In this document: positions 30,132-59,016 of the stretch, one piece after another
How the letters are laid out: each line of letters begins with the position of its first letter
How positions within the stretch are numbered: position 1 is the stretch's first letter
Assembly: GCA_036229005.1 (NCBI GenBank)
Contig: JAZAMN010000069.1
Location: 1 to 59,016 of the forward strand
Direction: 5' to 3'
DNA: 59,016 bases
Origin: Myxococcota bacterium
GTDB taxonomy: Bacteria > Myxococcota_A > UBA796 > CAJQPC01
Notes under the pieces: model-generated
What the model was told of the DNA's origin: nothing
What the model saw: only the letters and a program-made list of their open reading frames with translations
The model's database searches: none
Made by a program: the position numbers and the translations under genes

Positions 30132-30160
30132 GTCTTGTCCCTGTGGGGCGGGTGGCCCGC

Positions 30161-36854: not shown

Positions 36855-37019
36855 ATGCGCTACACCGGCTCCCTCTTTCGGCCTCCCAGTGAGGCACGCA
36901 GCTACATCCTCCAAGCCACCCTCGGCTGCTCCTGGAACAACTGCACCTACTGCTTGGAATCAAATAGTTTCAGCCACTTGAGATATACCTGTACACGCTG
37001 GTTGACCAAGTGTACACGC
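36855..37019 (+). repeat. Junction J1: radical-SAM 5' fragment (33 codons), IHF-like site and paired arm-like repeats
   Basis: MRYTGSLFRPPSEARSYILQATLGCSWNNCTYC at 36855-36953; TGCACCTACTG 36942-36952; TGTACACGC at 36990 and 37011. Confidence 0.85.
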
Positions 37020-37085
37020 TGCGTCCGCAACCGGAGAAGCCCTGGTGCTGGACGCACACGCAGATGAGGGAGAGTTGGTAAGGGC

Positions 37086-38774
37086 TCAAAGGGCTCCGGG
37101 GGCCCCAAGGAACAGGTGCGCCGCCCCTGGCCCAAAGCGGTCCGGGTCTGTCTCGTAGGTTGGGTCTCCGACCAAGAGCTCCTGGCAACCGTCGCCATTG
37201 AGGTCGTCCAGGAAGGCGGCGTGTGCCGCGTACTGGTTCCAGTCCTCGAATCCAACCTGGGCGAGTAGGCCATCGGGCTCGCTCTGGATCTCGATGGTCC
37301 CAGTCCCAAGGGGCCCCAAGGCAAGGGCCAGGCCCGCGAGAGTCTCCTGCTCGACAAACGTCTGGACCAGGTCTGCGTGGCCGTCGCAGTTGATGTCGCC
37401 GAGGTGGAAAGTGCCCAGATTGTAGGCGCCGAAGTGGTCGTCCTGATTCACTACCCGGAGGCCGGGAGCGGTGAGGTCGACCTGGATGGTGTCGATCCAG
37501 ACAAATAGCTCACGTTGGGAGTCGTCTACCCGGACTTCCACAATGAGGTCGGGAAGCCCATCATTGTTGACGTCTTCGGCAAGATCAGGTCGATTGAAGG
37601 CTCGCGTGAGATCGAGGCCCTGACCGAATTCAACTTCGATGGAATCGTGGGCGACCATCACGTCTGATGCATAGCTGGTGTCCACTTCGAAGGGGCCCTG
37701 CCCGTGCCAGAGTCGCTGGGTTCGAAGGTCTGAGGGATCATGGCTTCCTACGAATATCTCGCTGACTCCGTCACCGGTCCAGTCGTCGGTAGCCGACCAA
37801 GCTGGTCTGGTGCCGTCCAGATCGATGGTTGTGAGCTGAAAGGACTCCCCATCCAGAGAGAGGTTTCGAAGCACCAGGCTGCTTCCGTATCCGACACTCG
37901 TAGGAACGGACTCGTCAAGGAGCTCCAGGTGACAGCTTCCGTCACCATACCCAAACAGCCCGTCGCCCCAGTACAGGACCTGGCTCGAGGTGGTCGACAG
38001 GTCGAACACCTCGCAAACGTCGGCCTGGAGTAGCAAGTACTGCGTTCCATCCCTCTCGAACAGAGAGACGAACACCAAGTCCGATAGCCCCGCGGACTCT
38101 TGAGAGCTGCTGACTGCCAACAGCGCCTGATCAAAGTCCGTGACAGGACGAGACAACACATCCCCCCCCGAGAAGAGGTGCACAAAGCGTTCGTCATATG
38201 TATCCCCGGCAACGGCGATGTCTGCCACACCGTCCCCATCGACATCGGGGAGAGAATACACGCCCTGTCCAGCATGGCTCTTGTTCTGCCAGTCATCGAC
38301 CCAGATCCCTTCGATACGGTGATCCGGAGTGCCGCTCGCGATGCCGCCGAAGTACTGACAATCCTCATCCACCACGCCGTCACAGTCCTCGTCCACGCCG
38401 GTGTCGCAGAGCTCAAAGAACAGAGTGGAGCGGAGGGGATCGCTGTCGTCGCAGTCCGTGTCCACAGGGTCGCCGTCCCCGTCACCATCCCGGTTATCCG
38501 CTCCATCACAGTCCTGGTCGACTCCATCCAGGGCGATGTCCGTCGCTCCTGGGTGGACGCTGGGGTCCGTGTCGTCGCAGTCCTCGGCCGTGGTCACGTA
38601 GCCGGGGGTGTCCTGGCACACCGGAACGGCTTCACCGCTGCCCCAGCCGTCGCCATCCTGGTCCGCATAAAGCGTGACCGCTGGGCAGCCGGTATCCTGA
38701 GTGTCAACTGGCCCGTCGGTGTTCGGGTCGGTGCCGTTTCGGCATGCCAGCAGAGCGAGAATGGGAAGGGTCAT
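37086..38774 (-). CDS. Lipoprotein with MopE-like and FG-GAP repeats (paralog of 34972..36741)
   Basis: LLAC lipobox; CxTGVDEDCxGVVDEDCQYFGG shared with 34972..36741. Confidence 0.8.
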   Translation of the reverse strand: MTLPILALLACRNGTDPNTDGPVDTQDTGCPAVTLYADQDGDGWGSGEAVPVCQDTPGYVTTAEDCDDTDPSVHPGATDIALDGVDQDCDGADNRDGDGDGDPVDTDCDDSDPLRSTLFFELCDTGVDEDCDGVVDEDCQYFGGIASGTPDHRIEGIWVDDWQNKSHAGQGVYSLPDVDGDGVADIAVAGDTYDERFVHLFSGGDVLSRPVTDFDQALLAVSSSQESAGLSDLVFVSLFERDGTQYLLLQADVCEVFDLSTTSSQVLYWGDGLFGYGDGSCHLELLDESVPTSVGYGSSLVLRNLSLDGESFQLTTIDLDGTRPAWSATDDWTGDGVSEIFVGSHDPSDLRTQRLWHGQGPFEVDTSYASDVMVAHDSIEVEFGQGLDLTRAFNRPDLAEDVNNDGLPDLIVEVRVDDSQRELFVWIDTIQVDLTAPGLRVVNQDDHFGAYNLGTFHLGDINCDGHADLVQTFVEQETLAGLALALGPLGTGTIEIQSEPDGLLAQVGFEDWNQYAAHAAFLDDLNGDGCQELLVGDPTYETDPDRFGPGAAHLFLGAPGAL

Positions 38775-38813
38775 GGGGAACTACAGAATGTGGCCATCTG
38801 AGGGAGGGGGCGA

Positions 38814-39377
38814 CTACTGATGGAGGAGCCCCCGTAGCTGAGCCACGGAGCGCGGAACCCCATTCCGCTCCAGGATATCCAGCACCTCGTCAAGGGACAT
38901 CGACGGGTTCTTCAGGGCCGCCGCCTGCTCCTGCACGACAAGGAGCACCGCACCGGAAGCAAGGTCGATGAGATCCAGGATGAACGCATCTGGATGAACC
39001 GCCTCAACCCCGTACGGTGCGAGCCTGCTGGCGGGGAAATCCCTGAGATTGTGCGTGACGATGGACTGGGCTCCGCACCGGATCGCGGCTGCCAGAACGT
39101 GACGGTCGTCCGGGTCAGGGAGCTCCAAATCGGCCATGAGCGGCTGGTGCCCCTGGACCATGGCATCGCGGACGGCCAAGTTCATGAGCTCCCGCGTGCG
39201 TGTCAGCTGTTCGGGCCTCAGCTCTGGGCGGTCCTTGATGATGTTCCGGAAGACCTCGTCCAGGATCTCCTCGGTCCACCGAGCACGAAAGAGCCCAGTC
39301 ATGGCGAGGCGCACAAGCAAGTCGCGAAGAGGCGCTGGATACAGCACATTCGCGTCGTAGACGACAGTGAAGGCCAC
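38814..39377 (-). CDS. PIN-domain protein (VapC-like toxin)
   Basis: VVYDANVLYP, LPDPDDRHVLAAAI, IVTHNLRDFP. Confidence 0.9.
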   Translation of the reverse strand: MAFTVVYDANVLYPAPLRDLLVRLAMTGLFRARWTEEILDEVFRNIIKDRPELRPEQLTRTRELMNLAVRDAMVQGHQPLMADLELPDPDDRHVLAAAIRCGAQSIVTHNLRDFPASRLAPYGVEAVHPDAFILDLIDLASGAVLLVVQEQAAALKNPSMSLDEVLDILERNGVPRSVAQLRGLLHQ

Positions 39378-39380
39378 CGC

Positions 39381-39827
39381 TCAGTACCCGAGCCCGAGCT
39401 CCTGGGCCTCCGCCGCCAAGGCGTCCGCCGCCTCCTTGCGACGAGCGTCGTCCAGGCTCTTGTAGGTCACCAGGTCCTGAAGCTGGACCCGTCGATGGGT
39501 GCCCACGCGCCGGAACGGGATCTGCCCCTCGTCCAGCAGCTTGATCAAGAAGGGCCGAGAGACATTCAACAGATCCGCGGCCTGTTGAGTGGTGAGCTCC
39601 GCCTTCACCGGCATGACCGTGACTGCATGCCCGTTGGCCAGGTGAGCCAGCACATTCATCAGCAGCTCAAAGGCCTCGACCGGCACCGTGGCCCGCGCAG
39701 GCTCATCGCCCTGCGCCACAACCTCGACGAGCGTGGGCCGCTGGGTCTTGAGCGCGGTCGAGAAGGCCCGGATGGCCTCGCCAGCCGCGCGCGTGGTCTC
39801 TTCGCTGGGAAGCTCGATGGCGTTCAT
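39381..39827 (-). CDS. Excisionase-family helix-turn-helix DNA-binding protein (PIN partner)
   Basis: ELTTQQAADLLNVSRPFLIKLLDEGQIPFRRVGTHRRV. Confidence 0.9.
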   Translation of the reverse strand: MNAIELPSEETTRAAGEAIRAFSTALKTQRPTLVEVVAQGDEPARATVPVEAFELLMNVLAHLANGHAVTVMPVKAELTTQQAADLLNVSRPFLIKLLDEGQIPFRRVGTHRRVQLQDLVTYKSLDDARRKEAADALAAEAQELGLGY

Positions 39828-39861
39828 GGCGACTCTCCTTGCCGAGAGCGTAGCCACCAAT

Positions 39862-39902
39862 CGGAGCAACCGCAATGACCGAAGCAACTGAAGTGTACAC
39901 GC
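39862..39902. promoter_or_regulatory. 9-bp-period direct repeats upstream of the HTH gene, running into a TGTACACGC motif
   Basis: CGGAGCAAC CGCAATGAC CGAAGCAAC TGAAGTGTA; TGTACACGC at 39894-39902. Confidence 0.5.
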
Positions 39903-39970
39903 GCGCGGGAGGTCCTGGGAGCCGCTGGGAAGGCATGGGCCGAGTTGCTTGGACGGAGTATGAACCGCGC

Positions 39971-40135
39971 ATGCGCTACGTCCCACCCCTCTTTCGGCCT
40001 CCGTCCGAAGCTTCCAGCTACATCCTCCAAGCAACACTGGGATGTTCCTGGTCCAACTGCACCCACTGCTGGGATAGGAGTAATATCAAGTGGTTGTCGC
40101 GTCGCTGTACACCCATTCCGGGGTGGTGTACACGC
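39971..40135 (+). repeat. Junction J2: radical-SAM 5' fragment, consensus IHF site and paired arm-like repeats
   Basis: MRYVPPLFRPPSEASSYILQATLGCSWSNCTHC 39971-40069; TATCAAGTGGTTG 40084-40096; TGTACACCC 40106 and TGTACACGC 40127. Confidence 0.85.
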
Positions 40136-40996
40136 TACTCGGTCGGCGGGGTCGACTGGCCCGCATGGTCGTCCCCCCAAACAGGACAGCTCACCATGCG
40201 GCGTCACGCCACAGTTATGCCAGCCGCCGGCGTCCAGGCTCTCGAAGAGCTCCCCAGACGCGGGCACCTGGCCGAAGTTGACCTGCCCCGCCGCGCCCCA
40301 GCACAGGGCCCCGCCACCCGTCACGCCACAGCTGTGGTAGCTCCCGGCAGTCACGCGGTCCCACGTGGCGTCGATGACCTCGAGCTGCCCTTCGCCGTCT
40401 TAGCCCCAGCACCGGATGGCGCCGCCGTCTTCCACGGCGCAGGCGTGCCGCTGGCCCACATCGACCTGGACGAAGGTCGCGTCCGGAGTGTCGGCGATGT
40501 CGGAGCCGGTCTCGCCCCAGCAGAGCAGGCTCCCGTCGAGGTCCACTCCGCAGGTGAACGACGCCCAACCCGTGCTGATCTGCCGGAAAGCGACATCCGG
40601 CGCATCGGTCCGAGACGACTCGCCCCAGCAGGTGACCACGCCGTCCCTGTCGAGCGCGCACGCGTGGAGCGAGCTGACCTGGACGTCGACGAAGATGCCC
40701 TCGGGGACACCGTCGATCGAGTCTCCCCAGCAGGTCAACGACCCGTCCTGCAGGACCCCGCACGCCGTGCGCGGCCCGATGGAGATGGCCTGGAACGCCT
40801 CTGCTGGCACCTCGAGCTGCCCCCGGTTGTCGTCACCCCAGCACGCTGCCGTGCCGTCCTCTCGGAGCGCGCAGCTGCCGAGGAGAGTTGACGTCACGGA
40901 CACCCAGGGTCCGGTTCTCTCAATCTCCGCGGGGCCCGAGTCGCCGGACTCCTCAGTGGGCGGGACCGTGCACGCGACGAGGGCGAAGAGAATCAC
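40135..40996 (-). pseudogene. RCC1-like repeat lipoprotein with internal stop and late frameshift
   Basis: LVAC lipobox and CA/CG..DG..CWG repeats; in-frame TAA at 40400-40402 with repeats continuing; removing one T near 40180 restores CWGDDHAGQSTPPTE*. Confidence 0.7.
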
Positions 40997-43212
40997 TCCG
41001 CCTCCGAGCGAAGCAGCCGCAGCGCGTTGAACACCACCAGCAGCGACGCGCCCATGTCGGCGGCGATGGCGCCCCACAGCGAGGCGAGCCCGGCGAACGT
41101 GAGGACGACGAAGAGAGCCTTGATGGCCAGGGCGAACACCGTGTTCTGGCGAACGATCGACAGGGTGCGGCGCGAGTGCCGGACGAGCCACGCGAGCTTC
41201 GCCAGATCGTCCGTCATCAGCGCGACGTCCGCGGTCTCGACGGCGACATCGGTGCCGATCGCGCCCATCGCGACACCGATCGCTGATCGAGCAAGCGCGG
41301 GGGCATCGTTCACGCCGTCGCCGATCATCGCCACAGGGCCGTAGGTTCGCTCCAGTTCCTCGACCGCGCTGACCTTGTCCGCCGGGAGCAGCTCGGCGCG
41401 GACGTCGTCGATGCCGACCTCGGCGGCGACCGCTGCGGCGGTCCCGCGGTTGTCGCCCGTGAGCATCGCCACGCGAGCCACGCCCGCGTCGTGCAGCGCC
41501 GCGATGGAGGCCCGCGCCTCGGGCTTGATGGTGTCCGCCAGCGACAGGGTCCCGCAGACGTGGTCGTCGGTGCCGATGGCGACGACGGTCCGTCCGCGAG
41601 CGGACTCGGCCTCCAGCAGAGCGTGCAGCTCGGGGGTCTCTTGGCCTCGCTCCTCGAGCCAGCGGTGGGAACCCAGCCAGTACGCACGGCCATCGACCAC
41701 ACCCCGGGCTCCCTTGCCGGGGACTGCCTCGACGGACGAGGCCCTCAACGACCCTCCGCCCGCGGCCCGGTCCACGACGGCCCGGGCGATGGGGTGCTCG
41801 CTGTCGGCTTCGATGGCCGCGGCGACGGCGAGCAGCCGCTCCGGCGTGTGGTCGTCGAGGGCGTGGATGTCCACCAGCTCGGGCCGGCCGAGCGTCAGCG
41901 TTCCGGTCTTGTCGACGGCCACGACCGCGAGGTGGGCGGGTATCTCGAGGAAGCGCCCACCCTTCACGAGCACACCGTTCCGCGCTGCGGCAGCGAGCCC
42001 GGAGACCACCGCGACGGGGGTTGAGATGACCAGGGCGCAGGGGCAGCCGATGACCAACAGCACCAACGCTCGGTAGAACCAGGTGCCCCAGTCCGCGCCG
42101 AAGGCCAGCGGCGGGACCACGAACACGAGCGCGGCCGCGCCGAAGACCACGGGTGTGTAGATGCGAGCGAAGCGCTCGACCCAGCGCTCGCTCTCGCTGC
42201 GGTCCTTCCTCGCCTCGCCGACCATCGCCACGATGCGTGCGAGGGTGGTGTCGGTGGCCGCAGCGGTGCTGCGTACCTCGAGCACCCCGTTCCCATTGAT
42301 GGTGCCGGCGAAGACCTCGTCGCCGGGTTCCTTGGCGGCCAGCACGCTCTCGCCGGTGATCGGAGCCTGGTCGACCTCCGAGCGCCCGGTCGCGACGAGG
42401 CCGTCGAGGCCGATGCGTTCCCCGGGACGGACGACGAAGCTCGTTCCGACCGCGACCTCGGAAGGTGGCACTTCGCGGGTGGCGTCGCCCTCCTTGACGC
42501 GGACGGTGTCCGGCGCCAGCGACAGCAGGCGCTCGACGGCCTTGCGCGCCCGGCCGACGCTCCAGCTCTCGAGCGCGAGCGAGACCGCGAACAGGAACGC
42601 GACCGTGCCCGCCTCGAACCACTCGCCGATTGCGATGGCCCCGGTCACCGCCAGGGTCATCAGCAGGTTCATGTCGGGCCGGAGCGACCGCAGCGAGAAC
42701 CACGCCTTGGGAAGGACGGGCCAGAGGCCGGCCGCGACGCCCATGCCGTAGGCGACGAGGGCGGGTACAGGCACGGCGTGCTCGGCGCCGCCCATGCCCT
42801 CGTGGCCGATGGCCGCCTCGAGCCCACCCAGGACCGCGTGCAGACCGAACCCGGCCGCGACGCCCATCCCGCTCACCGTCGCGAGGATGCTGGTCCGATT
42901 GCGCTCCCAAACGGACGGGTCGGGCTCGGGGGAGTCGCCTTGCACACGGACGGCGCGCATGCCCGTCCTCCCCACCGCGGAGATCACCGCCTCCATGTCG
43001 ACATTCTCCGGCACCTCCATCACCCCGGACAGGGTGTCGAAGACCAGGGCGTCGGGGTCGACGAGGTCCTTCAGCACCCGCTTGAGCGTCCCGACCTCCT
43101 CGGCGCAGTCCATGCCGTGGACCTTGAGCGCCACCCCAGCTCCTCGGGCGACGGGGTTGGACGCCACCTGCTCCTCGCCACCGCAGCAGTGGTCGTGCTC
43201 ATTATCAGACAT
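40993..43212 (-). CDS. Heavy-metal translocating P1B-type ATPase (CadA/ZntA-like)
   Basis: GMDCAEE, ITGES, IGCPCALVISTP, DKTGTLT, GDGVNDAPAL. Confidence 0.95.
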   Translation of the reverse strand: MSDNEHDHCCGGEEQVASNPVARGAGVALKVHGMDCAEEVGTLKRVLKDLVDPDALVFDTLSGVMEVPENVDMEAVISAVGRTGMRAVRVQGDSPEPDPSVWERNRTSILATVSGMGVAAGFGLHAVLGGLEAAIGHEGMGGAEHAVPVPALVAYGMGVAAGLWPVLPKAWFSLRSLRPDMNLLMTLAVTGAIAIGEWFEAGTVAFLFAVSLALESWSVGRARKAVERLLSLAPDTVRVKEGDATREVPPSEVAVGTSFVVRPGERIGLDGLVATGRSEVDQAPITGESVLAAKEPGDEVFAGTINGNGVLEVRSTAAATDTTLARIVAMVGEARKDRSESERWVERFARIYTPVVFGAAALVFVVPPLAFGADWGTWFYRALVLLVIGCPCALVISTPVAVVSGLAAAARNGVLVKGGRFLEIPAHLAVVAVDKTGTLTLGRPELVDIHALDDHTPERLLAVAAAIEADSEHPIARAVVDRAAGGGSLRASSVEAVPGKGARGVVDGRAYWLGSHRWLEERGQETPELHALLEAESARGRTVVAIGTDDHVCGTLSLADTIKPEARASIAALHDAGVARVAMLTGDNRGTAAAVAAEVGIDDVRAELLPADKVSAVEELERTYGPVAMIGDGVNDAPALARSAIGVAMGAIGTDVAVETADVALMTDDLAKLAWLVRHSRRTLSIVRQNTVFALAIKALFVVLTFAGLASLWGAIAADMGASLLVVFNALRLLRSEAE

Positions 43213-43510
43213 CGTCGGCCTCCTCGGTCGCGTGTTGGACGGCGTCCTCGACGATGCAGCCGACGTGCTCGTCGTGGAGTCGATACACCACGGACCGCCC
43301 CTCGCGGTCGCCTACGACCAGGCGTGCGTTCCGCAGGTGCCGTAGGTGGTGCGAGAGCGCCGACTGCTCGACATCCAGCTCGGCCATCAGGGCCTTGACC
43401 TTGGCGGGGCCCTCTCGATGGAGGCGAAGGAGGACGGCCAGTCGAACCGGGTGGGCCATGCAGCTCAGCAGGTCCACTGCCCGCTCGAGGTCGACGGGGC
43501 GCGTGGTCAC
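43205..43510 (-). CDS. ArsR/SmtB-family metal-sensing repressor
   Basis: AHPVRLAVL, EQSALSHHLRHLR, REGRSVVYRLHDEHV. Confidence 0.9.
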   Translation of the reverse strand: MTTRPVDLERAVDLLSCMAHPVRLAVLLRLHREGPAKVKALMAELDVEQSALSHHLRHLRNARLVVGDREGRSVVYRLHDEHVGCIVEDAVQHATEEADDV

Positions 43511-44184
43511 GGGCGCCTCCCGGTCAACAGGAAGCCGCTGCCCTCCATGTAGGTCTCCTCTTCGACGTCCGCGAGGAGCTCCCGGAGCAGCGCCTTGCCC
43601 TCGGTCCAGCGAGCGCGAAGCCGTTCGTCGTCAAGGTCCTCGGCCGAGTCGACTCCGGAGGCCTCGAGCACCTTGTGCAACAGGGGATTGAGCAGCTTGC
43701 GCACGCCTCGCTTGGGCCGGGTGCTGTGGAAGTCGAGCAGCACCAGCCGCCCGCCGGGTCGGAGGACCGCGACCGCTCGGCGAAGCGCCGCAGGCAGGTC
43801 TTCGACGATGCCCATCGCCCAGGTGCTCACCACGGCGTCGAACGCCCCCTCCACGCCCAACTCGGCAGCGTCCCCTTGGACCAGGCGGACGTTGGTCCAT
43901 CCTGCCTCGGCCACCCGGGTTTGCGCCTTGGTCAGCATGCCGGTGGAGTAGTCGAGGCCGACCACCTCGCCCCGAGGGCCCACGGCGTCGATGAGCAGGG
44001 GCAGGTTTAGGCCGGTGCCGCAGCCGATGTCCAGGACCCGGTCGCCTGGGGACAGCTCCAGCCGGGACACCGTGGTGACGCGGAGCTCTGCGATGCCGGC
44101 GATGGGCTGGCTGAGCCAGCGGTCCCAGAAGTCGTAGGTCCGCGCCAGACGGTCGTAGTTTCGTTGGACGTCATCGAGCTTCAT
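43507..44184 (-). CDS. Class I SAM-dependent methyltransferase
   Basis: VLDIGCGTG, GLDYSTGML, LRPGGRLVLLD. Confidence 0.88.
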   Translation of the reverse strand: MKLDDVQRNYDRLARTYDFWDRWLSQPIAGIAELRVTTVSRLELSPGDRVLDIGCGTGLNLPLLIDAVGPRGEVVGLDYSTGMLTKAQTRVAEAGWTNVRLVQGDAAELGVEGAFDAVVSTWAMGIVEDLPAALRRAVAVLRPGGRLVLLDFHSTRPKRGVRKLLNPLLHKVLEASGVDSAEDLDDERLRARWTEGKALLRELLADVEEETYMEGSGFLLTGRRP

Positions 44185-44798
44185 GCCTTCTCCGCGGAGA
44201 TGAACCCGATGGGCAGGAGCCCCGGGATGAGTTGGCGCTCCCGCAGCCGCAGGTCGTCGCGCTGAACCGCGGCGGCGAGTCCGTCCAGAGAGAGCCGCCG
44301 TTGGCCGGGGAAGCCAGTGAGACCCGAGAGCCACGACAGGACACGGGTCCGAGCGCTGTGGTCGTGCAGGTAGGTCGGGATGATGAGCTTCCCGCCTGGC
44401 CTCAGCACGCCCACGAGCTTGTCGATCCCTGCGTCGAGGTCGGGGAGGAGGTGCAGCACGTTCGCCGCGACGACGGCGTCGAAGCGAGGAGGGCCCTCGA
44501 GTGTGTACAGGTCGAGTTGTCGGGTCTCGACGTTGTCCAGCTCGCCGACCGCGGCGCGGAGCTGCTTGACCATCGCCTCGGCGTAGTCGGTGGCGACGAG
44601 TCGCCCCACGACGGGAGCGATGGCGCGACTGACCAGCCCCGTTCCTGCGGCGAGCTCGAGGACGCAATCGGCGCCCTCGACCTCATCGGCGACCCGCTGC
44701 ACCATCTCGGGCATCGGGCCACCGAACAGCAGCATGAACCCGCCGTAGCGGGAAGCAGAGCGCTCCCAGTAGGACCGCGCTTCCTCAACAGCTGTCAC
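44181..44798 (-). CDS. Class I SAM-dependent methyltransferase
   Basis: [35 protein letters not shown] before GTG 44798. Confidence 0.88.
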   Translation of the reverse strand: MTAVEEARSYWERSASRYGGFMLLFGGPMPEMVQRVADEVEGADCVLELAAGTGLVSRAIAPVVGRLVATDYAEAMVKQLRAAVGELDNVETRQLDLYTLEGPPRFDAVVAANVLHLLPDLDAGIDKLVGVLRPGGKLIIPTYLHDHSARTRVLSWLSGLTGFPGQRRLSLDGLAAAVQRDDLRLRERQLIPGLLPIGFISAEKA

Positions 44799-44817
44799 CG
44801 GTACCTCCGTTGCTAAC

Positions 44818-44853
44818 ACATGATAGCATCATCATATGATGATGTCATCATGT
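44818..44853. promoter_or_regulatory. Long AT-rich palindrome, probable ArsR/SmtB operator
   Basis: ACATGATAGCATCATCAT|ATGATGATGTCATCATGT with a perfect 18-bp core (44827-44844) upstream of the MTase-MTase-arsR-ATPase run. Confidence 0.7.
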
Positions 44854-50777: not shown

Positions 50778-50837
50778 GCCTCCAAGATAGCCCCTCGGTT
50801 CGTTTCTTGCTCGAAAAAACGGAGTTACGCTACCCCC

Positions 50838-51002
50838 TTGCGCTACGTCCCGCCACTGTTTCGACCGCCTTCGGAAGCGAGGTCGCTGATCCTTCAATCG
50901 ACCCTTGGCTGTAGCTGGAATCGCTGCACCTACTGACGTAATATCAGTAATTCCAGACTCTTGTGACATCGATGTACACGCACATCGACATTTTGTACAC
51001 GC
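50838..51002 (+). repeat. Junction J3: radical-SAM 5' fragment (TTG start, TGA at last Cys codon) and paired arm-like repeats
   Basis: Manual translation (M)RYVPPLFRPPSEARSLILQSTLGCSWNRCTY* 50838-50936; TGTACACGC at 50973 and 50994; absent from the ORF track. Confidence 0.85.
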
Positions 51003-51005
51003 AGC

Positions 51006-53171
51006 ATGAGGGCGAAACCGCCCACCGAGGAGGTCCTCGTGCGACCTGAGCAGCTCTTCGCCCACCTCAAGGGCATTGGAAGCACGGGCCGCTTCGTCGC
51101 CGCGGGCCACCATGGCGAAGCGCCGCTCATCCAGATCCGAGGCATGGGCACGCTTCCGCTTCCCGTCGTCCCCCTCTTGCTGCCCACCCTCCGTGGGGCA
51201 GGTCGGCCCGCTCCATACGGTCGCGGTCCCGAGACGGTTGTGGACGAAGCCGTGCGCCGCTGCCACCAGCTGGAAGCGGATGAGGTCACCGTTCCCCCGG
51301 ACTTCGCCCCCGTTCTCGCCGAGATCGCGCAAGCAGCCGCGGACCAACTGGGCGTCGTTGGCTCAGTCCAGGCCAACCTCTACAAGCTCCTGGTCTATGG
51401 GCCCGGCGACTTCTTCATCCCGCACAGGGACACCGAGAAGGAGCCAGGGATGTTCGGCACGCTGGTCGTCACCCTGCCGGCCGAGTTCACTGGCGGTGGC
51501 TTGGTGGTTCGGCATGGCGGTGCCTGTGAGCGAGTCGATCTCCAGCCGGGTACCTCTGGCGTGCGGTGGGTCGCCTTCTACGCCGACTGCACCCACGAGG
51601 TCCTTCCCCTCGTCGATGGGGTCCGGGTCGCGTTGGTCTACAACCTCGTCCGCGCCGGGGCTCCGACACACCCCGCAGATGACGGTGCCGTCGTCGACGC
51701 GCTCGCCACAGAGCTCGGGACGTGGACCTCAGAGGGTCCGGTGAAGCTCGCGTGGGCGCTCGAGCATCGCTACTCCGAGGCGGAGCTTGGATGGGACGGG
51801 CTCAAAGGGGCGGACAACGGCCAAGCGCACGCCCTCCGCCGCGCAGCTCAGATAGCAGGGGTCGACGTCCACCTGGCGCTGCTTTCGGTCGACATGGAGT
51901 GGTCTGCTGAGGAGCTCCAGTACCGCTCCCGACGCCGGCGAGGCCGCTGGGGTAGAGGGGACCAATCGATCCATGGGGACGATGTCCCGGATGACATTGC
52001 GCTCTTTGATGCGCTTCGCGACGACCGGCTCCTCGGGTGCTTCATCGCAGCCGACGGAAGCACCAGGGAGCTCACCGGCATCCCCGTCAGAGAGGGCGAG
52101 GTCTGGCCGCAAGGGGTGATCGACGACGAGCCTCCAGACCACGTGAGCTACCACGAAGCCACCGGCAACGAGGGGGCCACGCTGACACAGCTGTACCGCC
52201 GCGCCGTGGTGGTGCTCTGGCCGCGCGGGAGCGAAGACGCACTGCTGATTCAGTGCGGGCTGGAGGCGGTTGCTTCGGCCCTGTCGGGGGTCAGAGATGC
52301 CGCCCGAGTGGAGCGCTTGGTGAGAGCCGTCCTGGACGACATCGCCTACGGCAACCGGGAGGCCGTCCGGCAGCTGCTGGAGGCCCTGGCTGAACACCGC
52401 ATGGCCGCTCTCGGCGTCGAGGTGTTGGAGCGGCGTTCTCGCCTGGACCGCAGCTTGGTGCCTCCGCTCGCCATGCTGCTGGAGAGCCTGGACGAAACGT
52501 CGGCTGCCACTGCAGCGGCCCAGCAGATGGCCCGACTCGGCCCCTGGGACGGAGAGGTCGCGGTCGACCTGCTGGCGGTCGCAGCCCGGCGAGCCACCCT
52601 CCCCTCACTCTGGACCGGACTCGCGGAGACCTTCGCTGCGCGGAGGCCTTGCCACTCGGAGACTGCCGACTCCATGGCCGTGGTCGTGGACGCGGCCTGG
52701 ACTCTGGATCTGGATGTCCTGAAACAGACAGCTCGTAGCCGACTCGGGGACGACGCCCGCTTCGACGACGCTGTAGCCGCTGCCCTGTTGCTGGAGGAGC
52801 AGGGTTGCCTACCCGAGGACTGGCGAGAGGGAGTGGTCACGGACCTCCGCCGAAGGGTGGCCACCCCACCAACCAAGCCAACAGACTTCGTCCGAGACCC
52901 TGTCCAACACTGCGACTGCGAGGACTGTCGAGCCCTGTCGTCCTTCCTCCGCGATCCTTCCGAGGACCGGTGGGTGTATGGCGTGCGCGAGGACCGGCGA
53001 CGTCACCTCAAGGGTGTCGCGAAACGCGAGCGCTTGGACATCACAACCCGTGTTCTGAAGTCCGGCAGGCCCCACAAGCTCGTGTGCACGAAGACCACAG
53101 GCCGGTATGAGCGCGCTGTGGACCGCTTCGCGCGGCATGTGAACGCGCTCGCCCTGCTCGAAGACCCATAA
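51006..53171 (+). CDS. 2OG-Fe(II) oxygenase-domain protein with long helical C-terminus
   Basis: LYKLLVYGPGDFFIPHRDTEK (HxD), CTHEVLP..GVRVALVYNL. Confidence 0.85.
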   Translation: MRAKPPTEEVLVRPEQLFAHLKGIGSTGRFVAAGHHGEAPLIQIRGMGTLPLPVVPLLLPTLRGAGRPAPYGRGPETVVDEAVRRCHQLEADEVTVPPDFAPVLAEIAQAAADQLGVVGSVQANLYKLLVYGPGDFFIPHRDTEKEPGMFGTLVVTLPAEFTGGGLVVRHGGACERVDLQPGTSGVRWVAFYADCTHEVLPLVDGVRVALVYNLVRAGAPTHPADDGAVVDALATELGTWTSEGPVKLAWALEHRYSEAELGWDGLKGADNGQAHALRRAAQIAGVDVHLALLSVDMEWSAEELQYRSRRRRGRWGRGDQSIHGDDVPDDIALFDALRDDRLLGCFIAADGSTRELTGIPVREGEVWPQGVIDDEPPDHVSYHEATGNEGATLTQLYRRAVVVLWPRGSEDALLIQCGLEAVASALSGVRDAARVERLVRAVLDDIAYGNREAVRQLLEALAEHRMAALGVEVLERRSRLDRSLVPPLAMLLESLDETSAATAAAQQMARLGPWDGEVAVDLLAVAARRATLPSLWTGLAETFAARRPCHSETADSMAVVVDAAWTLDLDVLKQTARSRLGDDARFDDAVAAALLLEEQGCLPEDWREGVVTDLRRRVATPPTKPTDFVRDPVQHCDCEDCRALSSFLRDPSEDRWVYGVREDRRRHLKGVAKRERLDITTRVLKSGRPHKLVCTKTTGRYERAVDRFARHVNALALLEDP

Positions 53172-53242
53172 CCCCTGCAGAAAACTCCCCCCTTGGTTGA
53201 CCTTGCTGCTCTACTCTGGCGATCAAGCCCCACGGAGTGACC

Positions 53243-53270
53243 TTGACATCAACCAATGAGCGAGTAAGCT
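53243..53270 (+). promoter_or_regulatory. Sigma70-type promoter for the abiE operon (probably leaderless)
   Basis: TTGACA, 16 bp, TAAGCT, then 7 bp to ATG 53278; no RBS. Confidence 0.55.
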
Positions 53271-53277
53271 CCAACAC

Positions 53278-54111
53278 ATGACCACCCCCTCCTGGGATCT
53301 GCTCCACGAGTACGCCAACGGGCAGTCCGGCTACTTCACCGCTCAGCAAGCCGCCGAGGCGGGCTTCTCTCCGCAGCTCCTGCACAAGCACATCAAGACC
53401 GGCGCTCTTCAGCGTCCCCTCCGAGGGATCTACCGTCTCGGGCGCTTCCCACCTGCGGAGCACGAAGAGCTGGTCGTCCTGTGGCTGTGGTCCGACCGAG
53501 CAGCCGTGTTCTCCCACGAGACCGCACTACAACTCCACGAGCTGTCGGACGCGCTCCCCTCCCGCGCGCACCTCACCCTGCCCAGAGCGACTCCCCGCAG
53601 GCGAAAGCTCCCAGACGGCATGATCGCCCACTACGCCGATCTGCCGCCAGCGGACATCACCTGGAACGGTCCCATCCCGGTCACCGGACCGGCGCGGTCC
53701 GTTCTGGATGTGGCTGCAGCGCACGGCGACGCGAATCTCGTCGCCCAAGCCATCGACCAGGGGATCCGGCGAGGACTCTTCACCATCGAGAAGGTCGCTC
53801 AGGCGGCGAGCTACGTAGCCATGGCACAAGGAGTCGGGACCCTGATTCGCCCACACAACCGTGATTCCTTGGGGGAGAGTTTCTACACCCACGGCCTGAG
53901 CGGTGTGTGCTCCAAGCCGCCGCCGAGCGACTGGCCTACGACGGTCGTAGAGCTCGCCCAGAGTCACGGAGCCACTCTTCGCGTCGCCCAGCTCTACCCC
54001 TCAATGACCATGCAGCTGGAGTTCGCGTGGCCCCTGAAGACTGGCAGTCCCAGTCCACAGACTCTCCGTGAGCTGAGCAAGAGCCTGAAGCGGAGGTTCG
54101 CGTGGCGGTAG
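53278..54111 (+). CDS. abiEi: Type IV TA antitoxin, AbiEi family
   Basis: QSGYFTAQQA, RGIYRL, VFSHETALQLHELSD, IPVTGPARSVLD. Confidence 0.85.
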   Translation: MTTPSWDLLHEYANGQSGYFTAQQAAEAGFSPQLLHKHIKTGALQRPLRGIYRLGRFPPAEHEELVVLWLWSDRAAVFSHETALQLHELSDALPSRAHLTLPRATPRRRKLPDGMIAHYADLPPADITWNGPIPVTGPARSVLDVAAAHGDANLVAQAIDQGIRRGLFTIEKVAQAASYVAMAQGVGTLIRPHNRDSLGESFYTHGLSGVCSKPPPSDWPTTVVELAQSHGATLRVAQLYPSMTMQLEFAWPLKTGSPSPQTLRELSKSLKRRFAWR

Positions 54112-55013
54112 CCAGTCCAGCGGCATTTCGTGCCTCCATGGAGACCCGCCTGAAGAGCGAGGTGGGGCCAGGTCGCGGCGCGGACCTGAACCGGCGTCGC
54201 GTGCTGATGGTGATGGAGCGTTTCCTCGCGCGGCTCACCGCCATCTTCCCAGAGTCCGCTCTGCTCAAAGGTGGTCTGGCGCTTGAGCTCCGACTCGACT
54301 CCGCCAGGACCACAAAGGACGTCGATCTCCGCATCCTCGGCGACCGGAGCGCTCTGCAGTCACAGCTCCGAGCCGTAGAAGCCCATCGCCCAGTCCCCGA
54401 GGACCATCTGGTCTTCTCCATCTCCGAGGACCCGATCCACCCAACGCTCACCGGGGATGGCATCCGGTACGACGGCTACCGCTTCAAGGTGAAGACCACG
54501 CTGGCAGGGAAGCCCTACGCCGCATTCGGCCTGGACATCGCCTTCGGCGACCCGATCCACGGTGACCCGGTGGTCCTGGAAGGCTCGCGCTTCTTCGAGC
54601 GCTACGGCATCCCACCCATCCGCGTCCAGACCTACCCTCCCGCCTCCCATCTGGCCGAGAAGCTGCATGCCTACACCCTTCCCCGGGACAGGGTGAACAC
54701 AAGACTGAAAGACCTCGTGGACATGCCACTCATCGCTCAGGCCCTTGACGGTCACCAGGCGGTGGACCTACGGCAGGCCATCGATCTGACATTCCAGTTC
54801 CGAGGTTCCCATCCTGTCCCGAAGATGCTGCCGCCACCCCCGCGTCAGTGGCTGGGCCCGTATGCGCGGCTCCGCGAAACGGAGCGGCTGCCTTGGCCAG
54901 ACATCGACCAACTACACACAGTTGCCAGCGCACTGTTGAACCCCGTTCTGTCCGGCATCGATGGAATCTGGAGCGCCAGAGAGGAGGCCTGGAATGCCGG
55001 GGGTGATGGCTGA
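54102..55013 (+). CDS. abiEii: Type IV TA toxin, AbiEii/AbiGii nucleotidyltransferase
   Basis: LLKGGLAL, RTTKDVDL, AEKLHA, TRLKDLVD; overlaps abiEi. Confidence 0.9.
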   Translation: MAVASPAAFRASMETRLKSEVGPGRGADLNRRRVLMVMERFLARLTAIFPESALLKGGLALELRLDSARTTKDVDLRILGDRSALQSQLRAVEAHRPVPEDHLVFSISEDPIHPTLTGDGIRYDGYRFKVKTTLAGKPYAAFGLDIAFGDPIHGDPVVLEGSRFFERYGIPPIRVQTYPPASHLAEKLHAYTLPRDRVNTRLKDLVDMPLIAQALDGHQAVDLRQAIDLTFQFRGSHPVPKMLPPPPRQWLGPYARLRETERLPWPDIDQLHTVASALLNPVLSGIDGIWSAREEAWNAGGDG

Positions 55014-55205
55014 ACGCCGCAGGCACAGACCCCGAATGGGCAAAGAAAGTGTACACGCAGATGGCTGCTCGGCCAAGCACACACCGAACTACCCAATCAG
55101 CATAGTCGCCTTCCCACCAATGATATCTACCCAGCAAACCACTCCGCAACCCAGAGTCAATCGGGAGACCATGGGCCAGAATCCCCGCAGAGTTTAGGAG
55201 CCCCC

Positions 55206-55370
55206 ATGCGCTACGTCCCTCCCCTCTTTCGGCCTCCATCCGAGGCTTCCAGCTACATCCTCCAAGCCACCCTCGGCTGCTCCTGGAACAACTGCACCTA
55301 CTGCTGGGACCCGAATAATTTAAACCACTTAGTGCACACTCACACACACCGAACGACCAAGTGTACACGC
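55206..55370 (+). repeat. Junction J4: radical-SAM 5' fragment, IHF-like site and arm-like repeats
   Basis: MRYVPPLFRPPSEASSYILQATLGCSWNNCTYC 55206-55304; degenerate arm 55341-55349, TGTACACGC 55362; extra TGTACACGC upstream at 55050. Confidence 0.85.
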
Positions 55371-55395
55371 TACGTCAGCAACCGAAGAGGTCCTG

Positions 55396-55695
55396 GTGCT
55401 GGACGCACTCGTGGATGACGAAGACTTGGTAGACGCCTCCGGCGGGTACGAGCAGATGGCGGCCTTCCAGTGCGCCCTGTCCGACCTGGACTGGCCCACG
55501 CCGGCCAAGCTCGGGGACATGGACGTGGTCGTCTGCGGAGTGGACTGGGATGGTCAGGCTCTCTCCGGCATGGACGCAGAGGTGAGCTACGACGGTCACG
55601 AGTTCGAGGTCAGCTTTCAGAAGCTCACCTTTCCGGAGGGGAGTTCCCATGCTCGTCACCTCCCTGCCTTTCGGCAGTGGCTGGGGCTGAGCTGA
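55396..55695 (+). CDS. Small acidic protein, possibly CcbP-like calcium-binding family
   Basis: VDASGGYEQMAAFQCALSDL..PTPA resembles the VDAYxxxEQ pattern of that family; GAGG RBS. Confidence 0.45.
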   Translation: MLDALVDDEDLVDASGGYEQMAAFQCALSDLDWPTPAKLGDMDVVVCGVDWDGQALSGMDAEVSYDGHEFEVSFQKLTFPEGSSHARHLPAFRQWLGLS

Positions 55696-55754
55696 ACACC
55701 CTGCCGACTGCATCGGGTGAGGAACACGAGTTCCGTGTGGGTACTCGAGCGCCA

Positions 55755-57272
55755 TCAGGCTGACGTGCCGTCGCCAGATTGGTGAGAACCACCGCCCGGC
55801 TCCATAGCCCTCTGAACGGTGACCCACTGCTCCCACCCCTCCAGGCTCCGGTCGAGTTCCTTCCGCAGCTTGCCCAGCCGCTCCTCGCTCCACCCCGCGA
55901 AGCGGAGGGTCGGCCCTGTGAGGTCCAACTCCACCTCCGTGGACTGTACGGGGGCCTCGCCAGTGTCGCGCCCGTAAACTGTCGCCATGCCGCCCCGGCG
56001 GACACTGTAGCGATCCCACTCCTGGAGGACGTCAACCAGAATTCCCAACGAGGCGATCGGCGCGTCCTCCACTGGGAGCGAGAGGTCCTGTGTCACGACC
56101 TCCGCGTTCTTCCACACCGACTTCATCTGAAGGACGTTGTGGACCGCCGCCGCCCCCGTTCCCCAGAGGACTCCGTGCCACCACCAGTACGGCCCGTAGT
56201 TCATCCCGTCCCGCTCTTCGCGCCAATGGATCGCCGCACGCAGGGGTGCGAGCGCGGGGTCGACTTGTTCTTCATTCAGCAACGCACTCAGCTGGAAGTA
56301 CAGCGTCGAGACGCGAAGCAGGATGAGGCCGCTGGCCACACCGTGGTCGATGACCCGCTGCCCGAACTTTGGCAGCCCTCGCCAGGCCAGCTCTCCGAAG
56401 TTCTCCTGACACAACTCGATGGCCTGCACCATCTGGGGCGAGCCAAACTGCTTGAAGTGGGCACGCCAAAGACCGAAAGCATCCGGGTACTTGTCAGTTG
56501 AGTTGGGGACAGGCCAGCCCCAATCGCGAAGCTCGGCCGACGCCGCGGACCAGCTAGCGGAGGTGTTCCCCAAGTCGGTCAGCCCGGCCGCCAGACTGCC
56601 CAGAGAGCTTCCGTCCAGGGATGGAGGCAGGCCGTCGCCGAAGCGGTCACGGGCTATCTGTCGATGTCGGGCGTTCAAGCCGAATTCGGTCCAGCACCGG
56701 TGCTGGAAGTAGTCGCGCACGACCTGGGCGCCACGGTCGGTCCCACCCGGAAGCACGGTGGTATCGGTGCTCCCCAGGCCCCCTTCGAGCAGGTAGCCCA
56801 CGTCGTGAAGCAGGCTCGCGAACAGCCAGACGGCGTTGAAGCGGTTGTCGACCCGCGCGCGTGGAATGGAGGAAGGAGAGATACCGCTTCGCGTCGCCAA
56901 GGCCTGACGAACGCTGTCATATATCCTTTCGTTGCTCAGGTACAGCGCCCAACCAAGCAAGTAGTTGTTCACGGTGTGCGCTGCGTGGTCGCGCTGCCCA
57001 GTGTAGGCGATGTCCCCTCCACGCTCGCGCCGTAGGACTCCGTGCCTGAAGTGCACGGTATCATCGATGTCCTCGACTTCGAGGAAAGCAGCCGCGAGCT
57101 CCTCGGCCCGAGCCACGCGGACCTCGTCCATAGTCGCCCTGAGGAAGGCGCTCAGCAGCTTGCGCGTACCGTCAGCCCGCTTGTCTGAGAGCTCTCCATA
57201 CAGCGCAGCCCAGAAGCGCTCGGCGCCCGCGCCCTTGGTAAACAGTTCGGACAGGGTGGTGGAAACGGTCAC
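55755..57272 (-). CDS. HD-superfamily phosphohydrolase-like protein
   Basis: DHAAHTVNNYLLG, SLLHDVGY, DHGVASG, VHN, DVLQEWDR; GTG start overlaps the upstream TGA. Confidence 0.7.
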   Translation of the reverse strand: MTVSTTLSELFTKGAGAERFWAALYGELSDKRADGTRKLLSAFLRATMDEVRVARAEELAAAFLEVEDIDDTVHFRHGVLRRERGGDIAYTGQRDHAAHTVNNYLLGWALYLSNERIYDSVRQALATRSGISPSSIPRARVDNRFNAVWLFASLLHDVGYLLEGGLGSTDTTVLPGGTDRGAQVVRDYFQHRCWTEFGLNARHRQIARDRFGDGLPPSLDGSSLGSLAAGLTDLGNTSASWSAASAELRDWGWPVPNSTDKYPDAFGLWRAHFKQFGSPQMVQAIELCQENFGELAWRGLPKFGQRVIDHGVASGLILLRVSTLYFQLSALLNEEQVDPALAPLRAAIHWREERDGMNYGPYWWWHGVLWGTGAAAVHNVLQMKSVWKNAEVVTQDLSLPVEDAPIASLGILVDVLQEWDRYSVRRGGMATVYGRDTGEAPVQSTEVELDLTGPTLRFAGWSEERLGKLRKELDRSLEGWEQWVTVQRAMEPGGGSHQSGDGTSA

Positions 57273-59016
57273 TTTTTCCTCTTGCGAAATGCGGGGGGTG
57301 GGGTCTTCCAGCGGGGGGCGGCGTCGGTGTCGTGCTGCAGCTTGTCTGCCTTTCGACGTACAGCCTCGCACCATCCCTTGTTCTGCTGCTTGATGACGTC
57401 GTGAACAGGAATGCAGACGTCGGCCGTCACGAACAGCTCCGCACCTTCCAGGCCCAGCAGCTTCTTCCCGTGGCCGGCGCGCGGGGTCCATGCGAAGGAA
57501 CCACCGACCTCACCGTGGTTTGTGAGCACCAGATTGGCGTAGTTTTCGTAGGAGCGGGTCCAGGTCATCGCCTGGTATAGCTCCACGTCCGTGTTGAAGG
57601 CGGAGAAGAACATGTGCTGGATGCGGCCTCGCATCAAGGCGTAGGGCAGCGGGTCCAACAGGTCGGAGCAGATGCCGGTGGTGAAGCCGCCCCAGCGAGG
57701 GTGCACGAAGCAGTACCAGGTGCGTCCGGCAGCGACGCGCCACCTGACCGCGTCATCGCTCAATGCCTTGGCCAGGGAGTATTCGACGGGCGCGGGCAGC
57801 GGCTTGCGAATGCGGTAGGAACGGCTGGAGCGCCGACCCAGGTGAAGCACCAGATCCGCCTCGTTCGTAAACCAGCGCTGTGGGGCGCCACAGTAGGCAT
57901 TCGGTCGCTGCAGCTCCACCCAGTACCGTCCGGTCAGGATGGAGTAGCGGTGCTGACGGACGGTGTCCTCTACCAGGCGTTCCACGCCTGGCGGGAGAAC
58001 CACCTCGGGAAGCACGACAAGCTCGGGGCCGCGAGCCGGCTTTCCAGGGACAGCCGGCCACGGCAGGGCTGCAGTCAGGTTCCAAAGCGCGCGCCGCGGG
58101 GCAGGGTGGCGCGGCCAGGACGCGAGGACCGCCTTCATCTCGGGGAAGAAGTCGGTTTGGGCCACCCGGACACGCACCTGGTCGGGCAGCCTCGGGTCCG
58201 CGAGCGGCGGCTCGTCGAGGGGTGTGGTGAGCAAGTTCTGCCCCAAGCCGGTCCGGGTCAAGTCGACCTGGACAATCGCTGCGTCTACGCGACCGGGCTG
58301 GGGAGAATCGGCTGGCGGCCCACCTCCCACCCGCTGATGCAGGAGTGCCCGGTCCATCTCTTCCAAGCGAGGCAGGGGAGCACTCACCGGCCCAGATGAC
58401 AGCGACGTCGACCGAACGTCAGGAACCTGCCGCCAGAAGCGATCCAGTGGACGCTCCGACCCGGTCGATGCGACCAGACCCAGGAGGTGGTGTGCCAGTC
58501 GCACCCGTACCTGAGAGTTCCCGAAGGAAAACTCCGGGTCAGCCAGTGCGAAAAACACTGGGTGCGGTGCGACGTGCGGCCGACCGTTGCGCAGCAGGAC
58601 GCGGCCCTCTACCGGCGTGGGCTCGATGCGCCCTGCGTCCCCTCGGTTCAGCAGATGCAACCGATGGTTCTGGATAGCCTGCGTCGCCTGGTGGCTGAAG
58701 CGCCACTCGACCGGTAACAAATCGCTTGACCAGTCCGAGCTCTCCGCCAGCGCGCGGTCCACCAGCAGAGGCGGGATGCCCAAGGCCGGCGGAAGGGAGC
58801 CCTCGGAGCTATCAACGAGCTGGGTAGGCCAGGCAAGCAGCAGCCGCCCCAGGTCGCCGGGCGCCGGCTTGGCGCGCGCTGGAGGCCCCTCCATTGGCAG
58901 CTGGCGAAGTCCGACCGCCCCGCGCCAGCAGGACGCGAGTTCCGACGTGCGGCCGGGGGGGGGCGCGCCCCCGCGCCCCCCGCCCCCGGGCCCCCCCCCC
59001 CCCCCCCCAAAGTCCA
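57269..59016 (-). CDS. Protein with C-terminal carbon-nitrogen hydrolase (nitrilase) domain, probably 5'-truncated by the edge
   Basis: E-K-C triad in VLPE, RIRK and GICSD; the frame stays open from 58894 to the window end. Confidence 0.65.
   Translation of the reverse strand, partial: DFGGGGGGPGGGGRGGAPPPGRTSELASCWRGAVGLRQLPMEGPPARAKPAPGDLGRLLLAWPTQLVDSSEGSLPPALGIPPLLVDRALAESSDWSSDLLPVEWRFSHQATQAIQNHRLHLLNRGDAGRIEPTPVEGRVLLRNGRPHVAPHPVFFALADPEFSFGNSQVRVRLAHHLLGLVASTGSERPLDRFWRQVPDVRSTSLSSGPVSAPLPRLEEMDRALLHQRVGGGPPADSPQPGRVDAAIVQVDLTRTGLGQNLLTTPLDEPPLADPRLPDQVRVRVAQTDFFPEMKAVLASWPRHPAPRRALWNLTAALPWPAVPGKPARGPELVVLPEVVLPPGVERLVEDTVRQHRYSILTGRYWVELQRPNAYCGAPQRWFTNEADLVLHLGRRSSRSYRIRKPLPAPVEYSLAKALSDDAVRWRVAAGRTWYCFVHPRWGGFTTGICSDLLDPLPYALMRGRIQHMFFSAFNTDVELYQAMTWTRSYENYANLVLTNHGEVGGSFAWTPRAGHGKKLLGLEGAELFVTADVCIPVHDVIKQQNKGWCEAVRRKADKLQHDTDAAPRWKTPPPAFRKRKK

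Follow-up and report, generated by a model that had tools for sequence, protein, structure and literature searches.

Probable tandem accretion with replacement 5′ ends at a radical-SAM gene in an uncultured lineage of the Myxococcota

The window analysed in the current study is a stretch of 59,016 nucleotides which constitutes the entire contig JAZAMN010000069.1 (here C69) of a Myxococcota bacterium genome (GCA_036229005.1, here G000; 6.4 Mb in 74 contigs). It carries four orphan 5′ ends of a radical-SAM gene, termed J1 to J4, which separate unrelated blocks of cargo (units 1 to 4). The locus is set below beside the closest described systems.

Tandem accretion with integrase-free units, together with a three-step decay model, has been described for cis-mobilizable elements (CIMEs) and integrative and conjugative elements (ICEs) of the ICESt1/ICESt3 family (PMC5704250). 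As in the present locus, tandem units lie at one gene target, attachment (att) ends occur without integration genes and the newcomer enters the att site at the working gene end (PMC5704250). In contrast, insertion is here into the Cys-motif region inside a protein gene, the replacement 5′ end measures 93 nt, no conjugation genes were seen in the part examined, and one integrase-free end type is found across genera. Units 1 to 3 of the window lack both integration and transfer genes, as do CIMEs. Pavlovic 2004 and Bellanger 2011 are reportedly the primary papers on ICESt1/ICESt3 accretion. At the ssrA gene of Dehalococcoides, 15 islands without an integration module have been proposed to be cis-mobilisable and, as here, many tandem islands lie at one single-copy gene; that system employs a serine recombinase, a tmRNA target and a 20-bp repeat, whereas a tyrosine integrase, arm-like repeats and a protein-coding target are found here (PMC3146451).

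Staphylococcus phage ASZ22RN enters the 5′ part of the radical-SAM gene yfkA and is predicted to bear an alternative N-terminus (PMC12323379). That case concerns a single prophage in a gene of the CxCxxxC YfkA family, cut at nt 30/31 (PMC12323379), whereas the present target belongs to a CxxxxCxxC family with no NCBIfam equivalog above cut-off, is cut near nt 87-93 and holds an array with integrase-free units. For intragenic targets, such as tRNA genes and icd, attP as a rule carries a replacement sequence, and doubled direct-repeat attP motifs at a fixed distance from the crossover are shared with helper-embedded phage-inducible chromosomal islands (HE-PICIs), which differ in integrase clade, target and motif and carry no replacement (PMC10111431).

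We regard the present system as tandem accretion of the lambda type, in which replacement 5′ ends are brought in; its nearest kin are CIMEs and the Dehalococcoides ssrA islands, and it is not an integron. Integrons are defined by IntI, by attC sites (RYYYAAC...GTTRRRY) which close the cassettes, and by mostly single-gene, co-oriented cassettes. The likeness lies in an array of swappable units, toxin-antitoxin (TA) and defence cargo and one nearby tyrosine recombinase; unlike integrons, the units are of 3-11 kb and multi-gene, with operons on both strands and a double-stranded, lambda-type att anatomy. The sole NCBIfam match of the integrase was to XerA_Arch, far below cut-off, and an exact regular expression of the attC pattern gave 0 matches on both strands beyond position 33000. 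The term integron-like, applied to the array in a previous sequence-only reading of this DNA, is not supported in its strict sense, there being no IntI match, no attC-like match and multi-gene units. What is new lies in the target, in the clade of the integrase and in an end lineage without integrase that is common to genera with different cargo. In the literature searched, neither these integrases nor insertion into this radical-SAM family is described, the TIGER/Islander target lists, which may list the site, lying outside that search.

Orphan 5′ ends and the intact gene

The four same-strand copies and their spacings of 3116, 10867 and 4368 bp were confirmed as the sequence-only reading had given them. 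The junction features, all on the + strand, are as follows.

36855-36947, J1 orphan 5′ end, codons 1-31 of the radical-SAM gene; putative crossover core CTGCACC at 36941-36947
36948-37019, left end of unit 1: AT-rich spacer, then TGTACACGC at 36990 and 37011 (putative arm-type sites)
39894-39970, right end of unit 1: one TGTACACGC repeat 77 bp before J2 and conserved upstream sequence (integrase-free end lineage)
39971-40063, J2 orphan 5′ end; putative core at 40057-40063
40064-40135, left end of unit 2: IHF-consensus match at 40084-40096, repeats at 40106 and 40127
50838-50930, J3 orphan 5′ end with TTG start; putative core at 50924-50930, TGA on the element side of the core
50931-51002, left end of unit 3: repeats at 50973 and 50994
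55050-55205, right end of unit 3: TGTACACGC at 55050, degenerate copy at 55078
55206-55298, J4 orphan 5′ end; putative core at 55292-55298
55299-55370, left end of unit 4: degenerate repeat at 55341, exact repeat at 55362

The copies had been described as a 33-codon peptide ending at the last Cys; all four copies stand, but across relatives similarity is lost after nt 93 (codon 31) and not after nt 99. In an alignment of 15 sequences of this type (type A; two, from locus L073, are near-duplicates), agreement with the gene consensus mostly runs at 0.8-0.9 as far as nt 93, falls to 0.5-0.6 at nt 94-96 and is at most 0.3 from nt 99. The heptamer CTGCACC at nt 87-93 (codons 29-31) is common to all four window copies and is the candidate strand-exchange core. 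J3 has TTG as start codon and TGA at codon 33, where the last Cys is expected; with the core placed at nt 87-93, this TGA would be element sequence and not damage. Of 30 codons compared with the intact gene, 12-18 carry synonymous and 2-4 non-synonymous changes in each fragment, and all four fragments are in frame with the gene body.

A tBLASTn search of the 74 contigs with the four peptides returned five loci at E<1e-11, namely J1 to J4 and C20:39242 (next match, E 0.16). The latter is the sole intact copy (C20:39242-40147, 301 aa), whose product carries Radical_SAM PF04055 above cut-off (E 6e-11) and a three-Cys motif (C25/C30/C33), with no named NCBIfam subfamily above cut-off and no PDB relative. 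The forecast that an intact gene and a tyrosine integrase would lie beyond the right edge or elsewhere in the genome was borne out, the two being adjacent on C20. This integrase, Int-A (444-449 aa), is divergent to the intact gene and starts 115 bp upstream of it. It matches PF00589 above cut-off, and R261, K287, H348, R351, H374 and Y383, the catalytic R-K-H-R-H/W-Y residues, are invariant in 10/10 aligned homologues (10 of the 12 found). Some 240 aa precede the catalytic domain, with no Pfam arm-binding match among them. An HTH_17 ORF, which may encode an excisionase, abuts the 3′ end of Int-A (weak match, E 6.7e-6), followed by a VapE-like ATPase gene and a Dpd cluster; a subset of C20 ORFs scanned gave no match to relaxase or type IV secretion system Pfam families. 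The near-complete Dpd (7-deazaguanine DNA modification) cluster, at C20:1-27100 upstream of the Int-A element genes, comprises QueC, QueE-like, FolE2-HTH fusion, DpdA, two DpdB-like, DpdJ, DpdE and DpdF genes.

The GC content is 0.634 in C20:1-39241 and 0.709 downstream, and GC at third codon positions (GC3) within the intact gene is 0.53 in the first 33 codons versus 0.89 in the remainder. Together with the identity drop at nt 93, this agrees with the proposal that elements bring their own 5′ end, and the 5′ end of the intact gene looks imported. Among 28 distinct intact genes, the GC3 gap by which codons 2-27 lie below the gene body is 0.46 in G000, 0.38 in G001, 0.39 in L072 and 0.32 in G051, 0.18-0.22 in G021, G008 and G103, and within about 0.14 in the remaining genes, most of these staying within 0.1.

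Every window copy shows the same order of 5′ fragment, CTGCACC, AT-rich spacer and two TGTACACGC-type direct repeats 21 bp apart; neither these paired repeats and spacers nor the single repeat upstream of J2 and of J4 had been noted in the sequence-only reading. The 9-mer TGTACACGC occurs 27 times in the genome, eight times at window junctions and twice between Int-A and the intact gene, and the repeats are putative arm-type sites. A profile of 13 left ends, the window's four included, found the four junctions in the genome and nothing else below E 8; in 8/13 left ends the repeats stand at +43/+64 from nt 93. A site matching the integration host factor (IHF) consensus with at most two mismatches was found in 8/13 left ends versus 3% of random window stretches, a comparison uncorrected for AT richness; three window junctions have an IHF-consensus-like spacer, the match being exact at J2. 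Units 1 and 3 retain repeats at both ends and unit 2 at its left end, its exact right-hand repeat being absent. A sigma-70 promoter was not found around J2.

As the sequence-only reading had stated for the cargo blocks, the window holds no recognisable integrase or transposase: none of the genome's six PF00589 matches is on C69, neither the Int-A profile nor an Int-B query (see below) matched the window, and no recombinase or transposase family appeared among the 20 window proteins scanned against Pfam.

Site-specific accretion with replacement 5′ ends is very probable. The catalytic residues, the integrase gene beside the att site in the target gene, and the repeats of fixed spacing flanking a short core are those of a lambda-type system. 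The attP of an incoming circle would carry, on one side of the core, the repeat(s), promoter region and codons 1-31, and on the other an IHF-like site and two repeats. Through crossover at CTGCACC, the 5′ end that arrives would be joined with the 3′ part already in place; the target gene would thereby remain whole, and the former 5′ end would be stranded ahead of the new cargo. Repeated rounds would yield a series of fragment and cargo ending in int, replacement and gene. Since each stranded 5′ end stays in frame, excision of the downstream DNA would restore a whole gene.

Occupied sites in relatives and a second integrase

Within 154 genomes of the same order, the first 60 residues of the gene were matched in 87 and orphan 1-35 fragments in 14 (G000 included), the copy in G136 lying at a contig end and possibly reflecting an assembly break. 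Outside the order, in a sample of 401 genomes across the phylum, no orphan fragment was found among the matches listed, 32 further matches being unlisted. Both empty-looking and occupied sites were found in relatives, as had been anticipated; for an orthologous empty site within the genus, comparison of window 28000-37100 with five genomes gave only repeat-protein and fragment matches. The exact junction pattern was found at three genome-contig loci, all of them among those above, and at four metagenome-contig loci, two of which repeat the G001 locus. Viral collections gave three distant Int-A matches (26-34%) and 90 looser-pattern matches, the gene fragment being in none of these 93 loci.

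Int-A was matched in 7/154 genomes (E<=1e-40). In three it stands at the radical-SAM gene, divergent to it (G000; G001, 65% identical; G036, 37%), in two at another gene, and in G132 and G051 it is unplaced. The two at another gene (31-33%; L084:8000-8700 in G046 and L198:300-1050 in G097) directly follow the 3′ end of a gene that is msrA-like by motif, with TGCAC-type words nearby, and probably represent a sister clade with another protein-gene target.

Nine complete units were compared: the three of the window and those of G001 (6628 bp), G011 (8852 bp), G015 (7669 bp), G018 (5936 bp), L072 (3013 bp) and G066 (5008 bp). None matched the Int-A profile, and PF00589 gave no match on the relevant contigs of G000, G001, G003, G011, G015 and G018, although its sensitivity is limited, since a partial integrase in G015 was missed. 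Among 84 proteins scanned against Pfam (part of 137 filtered ORFs, and C20 ORFs), the only mobile-gene trace was an insertion sequence (IS) remnant in the G001 unit. In G011 and L072, a single contig holds the fragment, the integrase-free unit and the intact gene, the unit ending in that gene. Cargo recurs in new combinations: the efflux trio with AbiE in G011, PIN/HTH in G001, a 2-oxoglutarate (2OG) protein with HTH_17 in L072 and AbiE in G066.

Some further observations concern these loci. A prokaryotic viperin-like gene (L025:4035-4916; PADLOC pVip, E 8e-86) lies in the cargo downstream of a junction in G001, and a similar gene is present in G003 (L035:957-1811). The G015 unit (L027:1422-8650) is a metal-uptake cassette with Fur, a TonB-dependent receptor, CobW_C, MerC and an ArsP-type permease. 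L073:8746-8778 copies the second G001 fragment with one additional C in a run of C, an assembly error or a frameshift.

A second integrase, Int-B (25.5% identity to Int-A over 141 aa), is co-oriented just upstream of the radical-SAM gene in G051, G103, G015 and G021 (loci L032:2242-3486, L078, L013 and L008). In the fragments of G015, G051, G052, G066 and G103, identity is kept to about nt 103 and TGTACACGC-type repeats are absent; these junctions thus lie some 10 bp deeper into the gene than those of Int-A, and often create TAG. Relatives of Int-B occur in 40/154 genomes, most without a site check, and 2/12 fetched loci adjoin the radical-SAM gene. In G015 both junction types are found within one array.

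Remnants or moving passengers

Our favoured reading, which we consider probable though less secure than accretion itself, is that the four copies are internal att junctions of a tandem array built by Int-A insertion, with some integrase-free units still moving. The right ends bear most directly on this. The 130 nt upstream of J2, of the G011 intact gene and of the L072 fragment align mutually at z 30-55, and those of J1, of J4 (with J1 only) and of the G011 fragment join this integrase-free group at z 8-16, whereas none of the group reaches z 4 with the Int-A-linked ends. The J2, G011 and L072 ends align and have unlike cargo, so that one integrase-free end has come to stand beside differing cargo in two or more genera. 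Such a J2-like end (PIN/HTH operon or the promoter thereof, a single repeat, replacement 5′ end) recurs with different cargo across hosts, and for this reason has likely kept moving after int was lost, with Int-A borrowed in cis or in trans from an autonomous element next to it. That J2-type units are self-standing integrase-free satellite cassettes (TA pair, att ends, spare gene start) moved in trans by Int-A is put forward tentatively, the odds being somewhat against it.

Strain comparison was performed with window 36300-56299 against assembled contigs of four public runs from four studies (4 of 21 listed); either of the two best-matching runs may be the source sample, and assembled contigs drop rare forms. 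No RNA dataset was among the runs listed. In run X2, contigs identical to the window (about 42x) occur beside those of a strain that is 97-99% alike and reaches about 1200x. A contig of this dominant strain (depth 1203) tracks unit 2 to 50936, at the J3 end, continues with 50 other letters, the length of 55305-55354, then matches 55355-55474 with 13 differences and passes into unrelated DNA. The dominant X2 strain therefore holds a different unit at the J3 junction, and a difference exactly at a module boundary, for which strain comparison had been suggested, was found. A contig of run X1 bridges J3 into unit 3. Two joints were set aside: one at 43.5x which goes back from 55701 to 36844 (side 33), considered as a circle and with a geometry unlike att-to-att, and one in run X3 from 40074 to 55360, too weak for use at a depth of 2.3.

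Several observations weigh against this reading. The J2, G011-gene and L072-fragment ends have one repeat, at -75 to -78, and the Int-A-linked ends two, at -122 and -65, so that J2-type ends may be unable to excise alone. Among the ends tested, the exact repeat is absent upstream of J1, J3, the G011 fragment, the L072 gene, G001-f1/f2, G015-f1 and G018-f1/f2. A captured host promoter may account for some of the likeness between integrase-free ends, G015-f1 reaching z 4.5. A second X2 joint departs at 36954 (J1 end) and re-enters at 43205 inside unit 2, the letters between being unknown; not every strain difference is thus att-to-att. No excised att-to-att circle was among the 15 joints listed from the assembled contigs (23 more were unlisted). 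Decay is attested by a 79-aa remnant of Int-B inside the G066 unit. Left ends of this kind occur in G003, G011, G015 and G018 with no Int-A match, in metagenome-assembled genomes 95-100% complete, and their units look stranded. The GC3 gap is small at two occupied sites (G011 0.10, G015 0.08), so that this measure supports replacement where strong and is not diagnostic. Finally, an autonomous-looking element with which C69 would stand in tandem sits on C20, whose start has the lowest GC among all contig ends, and we infer that C69 continues into C20; this linkage draws on orientation and low GC only, since the contig ends share no overlap.

The strongest rival accepts the same accretion and holds that no integrase-free unit moves any longer: each would have arrived as an autonomous element and lost int by a later deletion, leaving a dead remnant of the classical CIME kind, with strain differences being old history. 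The published three-step decay model (PMC5704250) fits it, as do the lack of the repeat at most integrase-free right ends, the four genomes with such ends and no Int-A, the Int-B remnant, the IS remnant and a G001 PIN/HTH module that has lost repeat and fragment. Against it stand the recurrence of one integrase-free end with different cargo in G000, G011 and L072, unlike the Int-A-linked ends, the differences at J1 and J3 between strains 97-99% alike, and the finding of an Int-A remnant in 0/8 complete units with Int-A-type left ends. We judge it unlikely, if still a serious contender. Some window units are eroded, and the claim that every unit is an intact mobile cassette is not supported, given unit 2, with no exact right-hand repeat, and the decayed integrase of G066. 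The evidence as a whole points tentatively to trans mobilisation and erosion both occurring.

RecA-type recombination between the fragments (about 100 bp, 67-89% alike) and between shared TA modules could instead have swapped blocks after the first insertions, with integrase playing no further part. Module exchange at non-att points, 38814 (where a separate X2 contig begins, at the PIN/HTH_17 module) and 43205, and the recurrence of cargo genes in varied combinations are in keeping with this, but the shared homology is short and diverged. The left ends, moreover, have diverged from unit to unit with the spacing of their repeats conserved, a pattern indicative of selection for integrase binding; this explanation is improbable. 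That the fragments are expressed stand-alone cysteine peptides, chance duplications or a misassembled array is least credible and already contradicted, for although the J1 and J4 read-throughs are both of 70 aa, the four read-throughs (70, 306, 32 and 70 aa) have unrelated tails, which rules out a conserved stand-alone peptide, and public-run contigs span J2 and J3 into their units, with the same anatomy in other genera.

Cargo and meaning of the hotspot

The cargo blocks hold metal-resistance, TA and defence genes, as the sequence-only reading had described.

33085-36854, possible earlier unit or flank (by Pfam and GC): two FG-GAP/MopE-repeat genes, 33197-34801 (-) and 34972-36741 (+)
37086-38774, -, unit 1: FG-GAP/MopE-repeat protein (Pfam)
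38814-39851, -, unit 1: PIN toxin (38814-39377) and HTH_17 partner (39381-39851), a recurrent right-end module (Pfam)
40400-50800, -, unit 2: RCC1-repeat protein, P-type ATPase, ArsR regulator, two methyltransferases, RND/MFP/OEP efflux trio
51006-55013, +, unit 3: 2OG-Fe(II) oxygenase-domain protein, AbiEi and AbiEii (type IV TA)
55396-59016, unit 4, ended by the contig edge: 99-aa ORF, 578-aa unassigned ORF, nitrilase-like ORF of the type associated with defence-associated reverse transcriptases (DRT)

The zone of low GC begins some 3.8 kb left of J1 (0.642 in 33085-36854 versus 0.707 in window 1-33000), and the right end of this stretch resembles the integrase-free ends (z 8-9 to the J2, J4, G011 and L072 ends). 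Neither tBLASTn nor the left-end profile found a fifth junction or native 5′ end left of J1; a TLGCS-like word lies near 33191. The PIN/HTH_17 module is 87% identical over 1117 bp in G001, and an HTH_17 gene has a matching position in L072. The efflux trio of unit 2 appears to be of heavy-metal type. In unit 4, the nitrilase-like ORF (57269-59014, -) is followed by the 578-aa ORF (55755-57491, -), which has an HD-like word; no RVT_1 match, as for a reverse transcriptase partner, was found anywhere in the assembly, and the two ORFs are possibly a defence system cut by the contig end. The small acidic ORF at 55396-55695, with no Pfam match, is 67% alike in DNA to L024:4572-4880 and thus lies near the site in two genera.

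Elsewhere in the window, [NiFe]-hydrogenase small and large subunits and a maturation protease are apparent from sequence at 29340-32830 (-), a stretch unmatched among the listed hits in five relatives. Internal repeats, probably protein repeats, occur at 195-494/726-1025 (a duplication of 531-bp period, 91%), 18535-19478 (three 363-bp units) and 26629-27302 (four units of about 188 bp). A tRNA-Ser called by ARAGORN at 48271-48339, antisense within the MFP gene, was taken as spurious.

This study adds, for an uncultured lineage, an integration hotspot and an integrase/att pair that are both new, and the readable attB core and arm motif could be used for site-specific insertion. The hotspot gathers defence cargo (Dpd, AbiE, viperin-like, DRT-type nitrilase) and metal-transport cargo, and flanking it in more genomes should therefore expose unknown defence genes. 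Island finders which require an integrase per island would miss such units, and the locus offers a clean test case as to whether integrase-free islands are dead remnants or still-moving passengers. The use of the same Cys-motif codons by two integrase clades suggests that conserved cofactor motifs can serve as integration targets as tRNA genes do. If the J2-type units are satellites moved in trans, lambda-type recombination would have given rise to an integron-like reservoir; the Cys-motif codons would be contested by two integrase clades that are only distantly related, and each insertion or excision would swap the promoter and N-terminus of an iron-sulfur enzyme.

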